Shown: positions 25,801-26,668 of the stretch, one piece after another
How the letters are laid out: every line of letters begins with the position of its first letter
Position numbering within the stretch: position 1 is the first letter of the stretch
Sequence record: LC519489.1
Source of the DNA: Escherichia phage SP22
DNA: 64,000 nucleotides
Direction: 5' to 3' (one strand)
Notes under the pieces: model-generated
What the model was told of the DNA's origin: nothing
Database searches by the model: none
Seen by the model: the letters and a program-made list of their open reading frames with translations, nothing else
Position numbers and translations under genes: made by a program

Positions 25801-25877
25801 GACAGAAGACCAATTACAGCAAACTTAATCTTATTCATCTGAAGGTAAATCGGACAAAGAAGAGATTTGGTTTGGTC
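25801..25877 (+). repeat. hairpin element a of cagaagacc...ggtc family (divergent copy)
   Basis: 5' arm gacagaagaccaa, 3' arm tttggtc. Confidence 0.4.
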
Positions 25878-25886
25878 ATTAAGAAT

Positions 25887-25963
25887 TGCGGGTATAGAGA
25901 AAGGGCGTCTCACATGTCTCATTAGCATGGTATCGGCAGGTTCGACTCCTGCACCCGCCTCCA
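25887..25963 (+). tRNA. tRNA-Met (anticodon CAT), 1:72 mismatch suggests initiator-type
   Basis: anticodon stem catgt/gcatg loop ctcatta, T-arm gcagg-ttcgact-cctgc, acceptor 3' acccgcc-t-cca. Confidence 0.55.
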
Positions 25964-25967
25964 ATTT

Positions 25968-26031
25968 TGCAGAAGACCGTATTCAGCAACAAAATACTTT
26001 TTGCGGATAAAAGAAAAAACACGGTCTGGCA
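25968..26031 (+). repeat. hairpin element b: tgc-aga-agaccgt ... acggtct-gg-gca
   Basis: inverted repeat with internal loop; loop begins attcagcaa. Confidence 0.55.
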
Positions 26032-26040
26032 ATGTATTAA

Positions 26041-26117
26041 GGTTAGGAAGCACATAAGGTATGTGCGGTCGCCTGTTAAGCGAATGGCACAGGGTTCGAA
26101 TCCCTGACTAACCGCCA
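26041..26117 (+). tRNA. tRNA-Asn (anticodon GTT)
   Basis: D-stem gcac/gtgc, anticodon loop ctgttaa, T-arm caggg-ttcgaat-ccctg, CCA. Confidence 0.65.
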
Positions 26118-26186
26118 AATTTAGGAGAGAAGCGATTGCTCACCGATTTGTAAGGTGCAAGTCCTTAGCCTGAATAGAAATTAAAT

Positions 26187-26274
26187 GTGTCGTTATCCCG
26201 TAGATGGTAGCGGTGGGGACTGTAAATCCCTTGTCATTGAGACTCGGTAGGTTCGACTCCTACACGGCACACCA
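26187..26274 (+). tRNA. tRNA-Tyr (anticodon GTA), class II with long variable arm
   Basis: acceptor gtgtcgt/acggcac, anticodon stem gggga/tccct loop ctgtaaa, variable hairpin gtc-attga-gac, T-loop ttcgact, CCA. Confidence 0.7.
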
Positions 26275-26280
26275 AATAAA

Positions 26281-26357
26281 GGTTATGTAGTTTAACTGGT
26301 TAAAATACTCCCCTGTCACGGGAGATGATGAGGGTTCAAATCCCTTCGTAACCGCCA
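26281..26357 (+). tRNA. tRNA-Asp (anticodon GTC)
   Basis: acceptor ggttatg/cgtaacc, anticodon stem ctccc/gggag loop ctgtcac, T-loop ttcaaat, CCA. Confidence 0.7.
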
Positions 26358-26442
26358 AATTATAATAAGTATTTCAAAATGATGTTTTGAGAGGGCTATT
26401 TAGCCCCTCCCTTAAAGAGTTCTTACGAGTATTCTTTAAAGG

Positions 26443-26523
26443 AGCAGAAGACCAAATTCAGCAAGTACGTATGAAATTTTCAAGCCAATTTAATTTTGAA
26501 AAAATTTAAAACTTGGTCTGGCT
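26443..26523 (+). repeat. hairpin element c: agc-aga-agaccaa ... ttggtct-gg-gct
   Basis: stem covaries with element b (GT/AC replaced by AA/TT; basal t-gc/gc-a replaced by a-gc/gc-t). Confidence 0.55.
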
Positions 26524-26532
26524 CAACAAATT

Positions 26533-26668
26533 TACAGAAGACCGTTTACAGCAAACTTTAAACAATCTATTTCTCCGGTAAAGAAAAGGCGAAGGTTCGA
26601 TTCCTTCACTCGGCAGATGTCGAGTTGGTGTAATGGTAGCACTTAAGATGATAAACAACGGTCTGGTA
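26533..26668 (+). repeat. hairpin element d: tac-aga-agaccgtt ... aacggtct-gg-ta, with tRNA fragments in the enlarged loop
   Basis: 8-bp inverted repeat plus basal tac/gta pairing. Confidence 0.5.
26591..26642 (+). pseudogene. tRNA fragments in permuted order: T-arm + 3' acceptor strand (26591-26615) then 5' acceptor strand + D-arm (26619-26642); acceptor strands are mutually complementary
   Basis: gaagg-ttcgatt-ccttc-actcggc-a / gat / gtcgagt-tg-gtg-taatggtag-cac; no anticodon arm. Confidence 0.45.

Follow-up and report, generated by a model that had tools for sequence, protein, structure and literature searches.

Why does the tRNA gene cluster of Escherichia phage SP22 contain four related hairpins, and what might they do? 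The hairpins lie at positions 25801-26668 of a 64,000-nucleotide stretch of this phage (sequence record LC519489.1), which we call the window, and are referred to here as elements a, b, c and d. They had been noticed in the letters of the sequence, and this original prediction offered several explanations: processing signals for the tRNA precursor, small stable RNAs, DNA cruciforms or miniature mobile elements. We favour the reading, with a probability of roughly 0.7, that the elements are small non-coding RNA genes of a Y RNA-like family and that their predicted partner is a Ro60-like protein encoded upstream, at 23948-25363. Among the explanations first offered, small stable RNAs is the one in line with this reading. 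The elements are best understood through the upstream gene; neither this gene nor the permuted tRNA inside d was part of the original prediction. The best reading of the system as a whole is a variant of the Ro60/Y RNA ribonucleoprotein with a different protein-binding motif.

The sequence and a repeat finder, which groups the copies as one family (D10), both confirm four hairpins on the + strand (Table 1). The order of parts is the same in each. A 3-bp basal helix (P1) is followed by an AGA/G internal loop, a helix of 7-8 bp (P2) and, right after the 5' strand of P2, the sequence U(U/A)CAGCAA. P2 occurs in two versions, AGACCAA/UUGGU(C/U)U and AGACCGU(U)/(A)ACGGUCU. P1 varies yet stays complementary (GAC/GUC, UGC/GCA, AGC/GCU and UAC/GUA). 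The covariation of the arms and of the basal pairs is as first described. Two details had to be corrected. The 3' arm of a had been given as TTGGTCT; the window copy reads UUGGUUU, and the pairing is kept by a G-U pair. The loops had been said to start alike, which holds for the invariant core CAGCAA; the full start is UUCAGCAA in b and c and UUACAGCAA in a and d. Further inside, a, b and c consist of an A-rich loop and a small hairpin. The exact sequence CAGAAGACC occurs four times on the + strand within ~740 nt, and twice elsewhere in the 64 kb when both strands are counted.

Felix O1-like phages (Felixounavirus: Salmonella phage PK6, Shigella phage Z31 and Escherichia phage ekra) match the region at 97-99% identity, and the element positions are syntenic across such genomes. 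Within the genus, P1 of b changes from UGC/GCA to UAC/GUA in relatives L003-L005. For b and d, minimum free energy (MFE) folds recovered the basal helix of 3-4 bp, the AGA/G loop and the helix of 7-8 bp; for c, they did so when its flanks were included. For a, the window copy gave the main helix only, and the full pattern appeared in relative L001. As an observation of its own, the loop of b (25995-26012) and the first element of Mycobacterium phage Tourach (L204, 4470-4490) share UUUGCGGAUAA(A/C)A; the hosts are very distant. This sequence can pair with part of UUCAGCAA in the MFE fold of b; it is not a family-wide motif.

Searches of Rfam gave no name to the elements. At gathering thresholds only tRNAs were returned for the window. 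No curated family reached its gathering score on the elements, and there was no Y_RNA match even at E≤10. At that cut-off, b gave only a chance-level match to Dicty_Class_I_RNA (24 bits, against 41.5) and c only a chance-level NRON match running across it (10 bits, against 50). We also considered a self-cleaving ribozyme or permuted intron, given the CAGAAGACC/GGUCUGG arms. This was rejected; no Rfam ribozyme matched, and a YrlA architecture accounts for d (see below).

The upstream gene, on the same strand, ends 438 nt before a, and d lies 1.2 kb downstream. Pfam assigns its 471-aa product to DUF7788 (E 1e-42) and DUF2828 (E 4e-29). The AlphaFold2 model of the protein (pLDDT 89.5, pTM 0.88) was compared with the Protein Data Bank (PDB) using Foldseek. 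The best 11 matches were all of the Ro60/Rsr/TROVE type and spanned the whole protein (E 1e-7 to 4e-6, TM up to 0.67). They include Ro60 of Thermus phage phiLo, Xenopus and human Ro60, Deinococcus Rsr and a 'TROVE domain' entry. Matches ranked below these covered the vWA domain only. Hence, the protein is predicted from its modelled fold to be a very divergent Ro60-like ring protein. Its identity to solved Ro60s is 12-16%. Sequence searches of the PDB gave no significant match: phmmer found nothing, and in a profile search the vWA-containing chains matched were Ro60 only, at non-significant E-values (0.23 and 0.42) and within the vWA region. The MIDAS residues D279, S281, S283, T349 and D381 are invariant in 40 aligned homologues. 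In phage Bas63 (JohannRWettstein), bas63_0130 has equal length and stands directly upstream of the same tRNA cluster. Bas63 gp130 has been reported to resemble Ro60 and to counter the ppl defence system (2024 PhageMaP preprint, PMC11482910). The RNAs were not identified in that work, which guessed that Y RNAs were nearby, with 'some tRNA genes' as candidates.

Table 1. Positions of the predicted Ro60-like gene, promoter-like sites, elements and their parts in the window. Motif refers to the conserved sequence following the 5' strand of P2.
Feature	Position	Strand	Description
Predicted Ro60-like protein gene, 471 aa	23948-25363	+	helical ring region and vWA domain with MIDAS site
Promoter-like site 1, sigma-70 type	25382-25410	+	TTGACA-17-TAATAT, 10/12 matches
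Promoter-like site 2, sigma-70 type	25473-25502	+	TTGACA-18-TAAAGT, 10/12 matches
Element a, putative short Y-like RNA	25801-25877	+	GAC-AGA-AGACCAA-u-UACAGCAA ... UUGGUUU-G-GUC
a, P1	25801-25803/25875-25877	+	GAC/GUC
a, internal loop	25804-25806 opposite 25874	+	AGA opposite G
a, P2	25807-25813/25867-25873	+	
a, motif	25815-25822	+	UACAGCAA
Element b, putative short Y-like RNA	25968-26031	+	UGC-AGA-AGACCGU-a-UUCAGCAA ... ACGGUCU-G-GCA
b, P1	25968-25970/26029-26031	+	UGC/GCA
b, P2	25974-25980/26021-26027	+	
b, motif	25982-25989	+	UUCAGCAA
Element c, putative short Y-like RNA	26443-26523	+	AGC-AGA-AGACCAA-a-UUCAGCAA ... UUGGUCU-G-GCU
c, P1	26443-26445/26521-26523	+	AGC/GCU
c, P2	26449-26455/26513-26519	+	
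c, motif	26457-26464	+	UUCAGCAA
Element d, putative long YrlA-type Y-like RNA	26533-26668	+	UAC-AGA-AGACCGUU-UACAGCAA ... AACGGUCU-G-GUA
d, P1	26533-26535/26666-26668	+	UAC/GUA
d, P2	26539-26546/26657-26664	+	
d, motif	26547-26554	+	UACAGCAA
d, circularly permuted tRNA-like domain	26570-26642	+	
d, V hairpin	26570-26586	+	
d, T arm	26591-26607	+	GAAGG-UUCGAUU-CCUUC
d, closed acceptor-like hairpin	26608-26625	+	ACUCGGC-AGAU-GUCGAGU
d, U8 and G9 equivalents	26626-26627	+	
d, D arm	26628-26642	+	GUGU-AAUGGUA-GCAC; loop has GG and a leading A

Do the elements accompany such genes elsewhere? We collected 80 IMG/VR loci with DUF2828 homologues, five of them Felix-like and the others 39-47% identical. 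The loci were scanned for U(U/A)CAGCAA following an arm of 7-8 nt whose complement lies 25-250 nt downstream. Such arrangements are found mostly on the strand of the gene: the + strand held 166 motif sites, 107 with stems, and the − strand 64 sites, 18 with stems. The helices are diverse (AGAGCAC, AGGACAC, UGGUUCC, AGGAUCG, AGGCUGU and GGAAGGU, each with a matching 3' arm). A covariance model, R1, was then built from 29 short elements. In 707 kb, with both strands searched, R1 gave 82 matches at E≤1, and every one is on the strand of the neighbouring gene. Among the non-Felix matches with E<0.01, 46 of 54 fall within 700 nt of the gene; ~10 would be expected were they uniform over the flanks. 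In the window, R1 finds the four elements only (44.3 bits for a). Altogether, the module was seen beside DUF2828 genes in dozens of metagenomic phage contigs.

The proposal that compensatory changes point to a selected structure was borne out by 33 non-Felix members. Their 7-bp helix is 98.7% paired, compared with 60.5% after shuffling and 33-45% when the arms are slid; since the seeds were chosen for having a stem, this percentage is partly built in, which is not the case for the strand bias, the position bias or the non-seed matches. All seven pairs change on both sides, and three inner positions show all four Watson-Crick types. The outer two (basal) pairs are nearly fixed, as A-U and G-C. 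CAGCAA is invariant, the G 3' of the helix is near-invariant, and a purine precedes the helix on its 5' side; the family 5' consensus is aAAAG(G/A). Other candidate features were rejected. A basal helix in the common family register (columns 3-7/87-91) is only 35% paired, and so P1 and the AGA/G loop are a feature of the Felix lineage. Only 24% of sequences form an eighth pair (columns 16/78). As to a second loop motif common to all members, there was only weak, patchy enrichment of sequences such as UUGGAAA, AAGCAA and GCGGAUAA.

A second covariance model, R2, was made Felix-free and includes elements from phages of Gram-positive hosts and from a mycobacteriophage. It was run over both strands of the whole window with filters off. 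Elements b, a, c and d rank first, and the next match has an E-value of 0.68. The scores are 33.4 bits (E 4e-5) for b, 28.7 bits (E 5e-4) for a and 22.8 bits (E 0.013) for c; d, of which R2 detects the 5' half, has an E-value of 0.56. A covariance-model search in related phages had been proposed as a check on the original prediction, and with R1 both the elements and their arm covariation were found there.

These data also bear on explanations at the level of DNA. Several similar copies are present in a region that also carries HNH-type endonuclease open reading frames (ORFs), as might be expected of miniature inverted-repeat mobile elements, cruciforms or homing-endonuclease targets spread through the tRNA genes. 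However, the arms are short (7-8 nt plus 3 nt), no target sites are duplicated beside the elements, and all 82 model matches are oriented alike with respect to the gene next to them. The conserved hexamer makes the elements asymmetric, as only one side of the helix carries it. Synteny holds across Felix O1-like genomes, and pairing is kept while the helix sequence changes. Finally, the helices contain G-U pairs (a of the window, a of L005 and others), which would read A-C on the other strand. We regard a DNA-level role as barely credible, and set aside both the mobile element and the cruciform.

Element d differs from the others in its interior. In its MFE fold, the terminal helices close a multibranch domain. 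The element's own terminal helix sits where a tRNA has its anticodon arm, and the loop AGAU caps the acceptor helix. The order of arms, being V, T, closed acceptor and D, identifies a circularly permuted tRNA. The Rfam tRNA model gave a sub-threshold match to d (26551-26615, 24.7 bits against a gathering score of 29). ARAGORN called no tRNA in 26358-26815, and d lacks the open acceptor stem and the anticodon arm of a tRNA gene.

Seven contigs or phages (L008, L013, L024, L026, L057, L077 and Tourach) hold eight more elements with the same arm order and lengths. The arms were parsed by script, since MAFFT aligned the acceptor and D region too poorly for a formal count of pairs. Each of the eight has a T stem of 5 bp with a UUCRANY loop (in L057 the stem forms only with a bulged U), a closed acceptor hairpin of 7-8 bp, U-R and then a D stem of 3-4 bp. 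The D loop starts with A and contains GG. All of the stems differ in sequence and all stay complementary. In three of the eight, the acceptor loop starts N-CCA, as if the 3' end were encoded (L026:6148-6294, L057:5415-5551 and L077:5522-5643). In these three, an RNase P cut could give a two-piece tRNA-like RNA with a CCA end. An RNA of that kind has been reported for Mycobacterium smegmatis YrlA.

Other long elements retain the helix and CAGCAA and have different conserved interiors. Differing interiors on one retained module fit the published picture of Y RNAs, in which a binding module is joined to an exchangeable effector module. Two long classes have interiors that are not tRNA-like. The first comprises L007:3276-3370, L009:3133-3232, L013:149-280, L019:1265-1373 and L033:3734-3828, and the second L012:5471-5721, L023:4793-5032, L029:6125-6294, L052:5754-5936 and L074:5758-5940. 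One class shares CCUUUCUGGAGGGGAAAGCAAAAACUCGCC and the other CAACUUCUCAUUG...AGAGAUAUAGCUGCCGAG; they look like alternative effector modules.

Could the elements simply serve the tRNAs? On the + strand, ARAGORN finds 25 tRNA genes between 25634 and 31973. Element a fills the spacer from tRNA-Glu (ending at 25795) to tRNA-Met (starting at 25887), and b that from tRNA-Met (ending at 25963) to tRNA-Asn (starting at 26041). Both start 4-5 nt past a tRNA CCA end and stop 9 nt short of the next tRNA. In the Campylobacter, Enterococcus and Bacillus phages described below, an element comes after the last tRNA before the gene. Such positions would suit cis-acting signals that process or stabilise a polycistronic tRNA precursor (guides for RNase III, RNase E or RNase P, or spacer structures) and are functionless once excised. 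The placement after tRNA 3' ends that was first described is direct for a and b only; c begins 85 nt past tRNA-Asp and d comes after c. Most tRNA spacers at 27000-32000 contain no element in the R2 scan. Conversely, the module stands beside DUF2828 genes in loci where no tRNA was found within 3-4 kb (L010, L012, L022 and Tourach). Thus, the elements track the gene and not the tRNAs. In addition, an invariant single-stranded hexamer and a tRNA mimic would be unexpected in a simple processing hairpin. Hence, the processing signals of the original prediction now seem very improbable.

The pairing of gene and RNA extends to cultured phages. By tblastn, the protein is found in 709 phage records derived from GenBank; its metagenomic relatives number in the thousands. 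The records span phages of Escherichia, Salmonella, Vibrio, Listeria, Staphylococcus, Campylobacter, Enterococcus, Bacillus, Aeromonas, Mycobacterium and others. We sampled six: Listeria cka18, Mycobacterium Tourach, Campylobacter F375, Enterococcus EF5, Staphylococcus S-CoN_Ph2 and Bacillus FADO. R1 finds 1-3 elements in all six, directly beside the gene and on its strand; for four of the six, the protein was confirmed as DUF2828+DUF7788. Tourach carries a short, a long tRNA-like and a short element in tandem. As controls, we used three canonical TROVE-type Ro60 loci, from Mycobacterium phage ET08, Streptomyces phage TomSawyer and Gordonia phage Sixama, whose proteins are 35-42% identical to Deinococcus Rsr. 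At E≤5, these gave no match save one, on the minus strand and at chance level. The pairing of RNA and protein genes thus recurs in very diverse phages and appears to be undescribed at the RNA level; in the literature searched, we found no paper describing DUF2828 as Ro-like with a defined RNA partner, or describing these RNAs.

Published transcription data exist for the Listeria phages. In cka15 and cka18, three tandem elements stand behind a TTGACA-17-TATCAT promoter. Those of cka15 (~25284-25558) occupy an unannotated gap of 395 nt just upstream of CKA15_055. According to PMC12282133, three non-coding regions within 2 kb upstream of CKA15_055 are among the most transcribed of the genome, and two of the three are 'unannotated regions close to tRNA genes' with strong promoters. 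The same paper states that CKA15_055 resembles Rsr by HHpred and that the protein is found in virions. Its authors suspected Y RNAs, pointing to the abundant transcripts and defining neither sequence nor structure. The cka15 elements do not coincide with the top-transcribed region given there (26,236-26,727) and lie in the neighbouring gap. Further non-coding regions with consensus promoters lie upstream of the Ro60-like gene of cka18 (L203, 1993-2298 and 2410-2940). The second of these corresponds to CKA15 26,236-26,727, whose transcript is reported to exceed all other phage transcripts by far; the covariance models do not match this region.

How closely are the RNAs tied to the protein? The RNAs might be real and transcribed and yet act independently of it, the linkage of genes reflecting co-regulation and not binding. 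Element d could then be a tRNA-like decoy for host anticodon nucleases or tRNA-modifying enzymes. Its elbow is indeed intact (T loop UUCGAUU, the D-loop GG, and U8 and A14 equivalents). Elements a-c could act as sponges, taking up a host protein that binds single-stranded RNA and recognises A-rich CAGCAA loops, and some of the A-rich loops have extra AAGCAA or GCAA copies. A reciprocal scan cuts both ways. IMG/VR was searched for AAAGGN5UACAGCAAAC, and 48 matches had a complementary arm. A DUF2828 gene was present in 20 of the 48 fetched stretches, on the same strand and within 1.2 kb; for arm-less matches the figure was only 1 of 72. The other 28 arm-bearing matches have no DUF2828 gene in the fetched DNA. 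Some of those stretches are short or cut near the match, and several have more than 3 kb on both sides, so the linkage is strong and not absolute, or the gene is further off. Against independence, it is the helix and CAGCAA, and not the tRNA-like part, that are conserved from Mycobacterium to Escherichia phages and that track the position and strand of DUF2828. Hosts so different are unlikely to share one protein target, and the module was not found in the three canonical Ro60 loci. Hence, independent RNAs seem unlikely to us, and we prefer RNAs that partner the Ro60-like protein.

Besides the 28 matches without a gene, several observations weigh against this preference. About 20 of the 75 non-Felix DUF2828 loci have no match within 4 kb. 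Folding energies of a-d are ordinary (z −0.7 to −1.9, within ~2 sd of shuffles), so the case for the elements is one of comparison and not of thermodynamics. Pfam does not call a TROVE domain in the 471-aa protein. The Rsr-binding motif proposed in PMC4201824, GNCGAAN0-1G, is not in the elements; the 5' ends of a-d are GACAGAAG, UGCAGAAG, AGCAGAAG and UACAGAAG, and the Felix copies read (G/U/A)(A/G)CAGAAG. For Listeria, the cka15 elements likely overlap one of the other two transcribed regions; we infer this because the text available of PMC12282133 gives coordinates only for 26,236-26,727. For SP22, we infer RNA expression and protein binding from sequence, and the evidence for a protein-RNA contact is gene linkage.

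If RNAs and protein do work together, a simple scheme can be drawn. The RNAs would be transcribed along with the tRNA cluster from the promoter-like sites at 25382 and 25473. We take these to be putative promoters of the tRNA and small-RNA cluster, and there is no terminator-like site on the + strand between either of them and the elements. Elements a and b fill tRNA spacers almost exactly, so RNase P and tRNA 3'-end nucleases would release the RNAs with no dedicated enzyme required. The Ro60-like ring would then bind the conserved helix base and CAGCAA module. The variable module would tether the ring to another factor, or gate the access of other RNAs to the ring, as in the Ro60/Y RNA and Rsr/Yrn1/PNPase particles. 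For d, the tethered factor might be something that recognises the tRNA elbow. During infection, the particle would probably serve RNA surveillance or the evasion of defences, because the Bas63 counterpart is reported to counter ppl (PMC11482910).

A bolder proposal, which we offer tentatively and would not bet on, is that DUF2828 proteins and modular CAGCAA RNAs form a widespread phage ribonucleoprotein, not defined before, and thereby a second Ro60/Y RNA lineage. Ro60 and Y RNAs have long been studied, as a human autoantigen and a bacterial RNA-decay machine, and their function is still murky. A second lineage would exist in phages of Gram-positive and Gram-negative hosts, mycobacteria included, with Felix O1, Bas63, P100/A511 and KVP40-like Vibrio phages among the model phages that carry it. 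Interchangeable effectors (the tRNA mimic, the A-rich loop and at least two other long modules) would steer the ring to different RNAs. The particle would guard or police the tRNA supply of the phage itself and overcome host defences, ppl being the reported case. It may even act from injection on, given the virion protein reported in PMC12282133.

The findings have practical consequences apart from this proposal. A large unannotated Ro60-like clade gains a sequence-defined family of probable RNA partners, and a short candidate recognition element, helix base plus CAGCAA, can be tested. The genetics are tractable, as Bas63 gp130 already has a defence-evasion phenotype. The RNAs would account for 'empty' spacers, and for small ORFs that are probably spurious, in many phage tRNA regions. 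Permuted tRNA mimics prove to be common in phages. Annotators gain a covariance model for a family missing from Rfam.

Other features of the region deserve mention. Between d and tRNA-Lys (26668-26811, + strand), a nearly perfect 24-bp helix closes ~100 nt (−43.8 kcal/mol, z −4.7, not equalled by any of 200 shuffles). RNase III might process the precursor at this place, or the helix might belong to a further small RNA. In Bas63, minus-strand coding sequences bas63_0137 and bas63_0138 (L081, 2778-2930 and 2942-3052) overlap c, d and this long hairpin. These 'hypothetical protein' annotations are probably artefacts over non-coding RNA genes. The + strand leader from the second promoter-like site to tRNA-Pro (25505-25633) has a sub-threshold sraL match (28.5 bits against 39) and a fold that does not surpass shuffles (z −0.5), and is probably of no significance. 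From tRNA-Asn to tRNA-Tyr runs a 69-nt spacer (26118-26186, +) that contains a T-arm-like AAGG-UGCAAGU-CCUU without the Y-like module, and may be a decayed tRNA.

Further downstream, at 27065-27387 (+), a promoter-like TTGACA-17-TATAGT (11/12 matches) precedes ~290 nt without a convincing ORF; matches to the tmRNA and permuted-tmRNA models are weak, partial and far below threshold. The adjoining 27388-27466 (+) scores 31.7 bits with the Rfam tRNA model, just over the gathering score, and is not called by ARAGORN. It is an atypical tRNA, the Bas63 counterpart of which is annotated tRNA-Arg (AGA). Small Cys-rich ORFs between tRNA genes at 27433-27831 and 28423-28875 (+), the second with a weak HNH match (E 4e-4), resemble homing-endonuclease-type insertions into the cluster. 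At L007 5571-6345, the 3' end of tRNA-Gly (gattctcctatcccgctccaaatttta) is repeated ~700 nt downstream, past an inserted ORF, as though a mobile gene had inserted into the tRNA gene and left a second copy of the tRNA end behind.

Where does the system stand among known ones? The closest relatives in organisation are YrlA and YrlB, the Rsr-bound Y RNAs found in Salmonella Typhimurium and in over 250 bacteria and phages (Chen et al. 2013, 2014, PMC4201824). That 2014 survey covered TROVE-annotated genomes only, and its supplementary tables may list a few mycobacteriophage members. The arm order given for YrlA is AC stem, V, T arm, closed acceptor stem-loop and D arm (PMC4201824; bioRxiv 10.1101/312249). 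Element d matches this tRNA-like domain arm for arm, the optional V hairpin included, and a-c, without such a domain, resemble YrlB-type short forms. YrlA is bound by Rsr in vivo, and its pseudouridine-55 and dihydrouridine are made by TruB and DusA. As with YrlA and YrlB, the SP22 elements are encoded beside and on the strand of a Ro60-type protein (here Ro60-like by predicted fold), a long RNA is in tandem with short RNAs, the 5' and 3' ends are paired, and a binding module is combined with a variable one.

There are also clear differences. The protein belongs to a separate, very divergent clade, DUF2828+DUF7788, without the TROVE match of Rsr. A short helix and single-stranded U(U/A)CAGCAA near the 5' end take the place of GNCGAAN0-1G. 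Unlike YrlA, the elements have no separate long Ro-binding stem beneath the tRNA-like module, and unlike YrlA loci, the genes lie in or beside phage tRNA clusters and not in an rtcBA RNA-repair operon. The canonical loci in which models of the new module find nothing include ET08, a phage of the 2014 paper.

Comparison with metazoan Y RNAs and Ro60, and with the Deinococcus radiodurans Yrn1/Rsr/PNPase complex (RYPER), gives a similar picture. The RNAs are ~60-130 nt long with paired termini and a large internal loop. The partner, predicted in the case of SP22, is a ring of HEAT repeats with a vWA domain, and the working model is again an RNA that tethers or gates the ring. Conversely, the conserved bulged helix (GGUCCGA...) of metazoan Y RNAs and Yrn1 is lacking. 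There is also a precedent within phage tRNA clusters. Species 1 and 2 of phage T4 (RNA C and D) are non-tRNA small RNAs that are co-transcribed with tRNAs and released by tRNA-processing enzymes; we know of no DUF2828 gene beside the T4 cluster.

Our view of the protein agrees with the Bas63 (PMC11482910) and Listeria CKA15_055 (PMC12282133) papers, which see these DUF2828 proteins as Ro60/Rsr-like and guess at Y RNAs nearby. It departs from the suggestion in PMC11482910 that some tRNA genes might be the Y RNAs, the elements being unannotated spacers. Taken together, the system works like Rsr with YrlA and YrlB and is not a strict member of that group.

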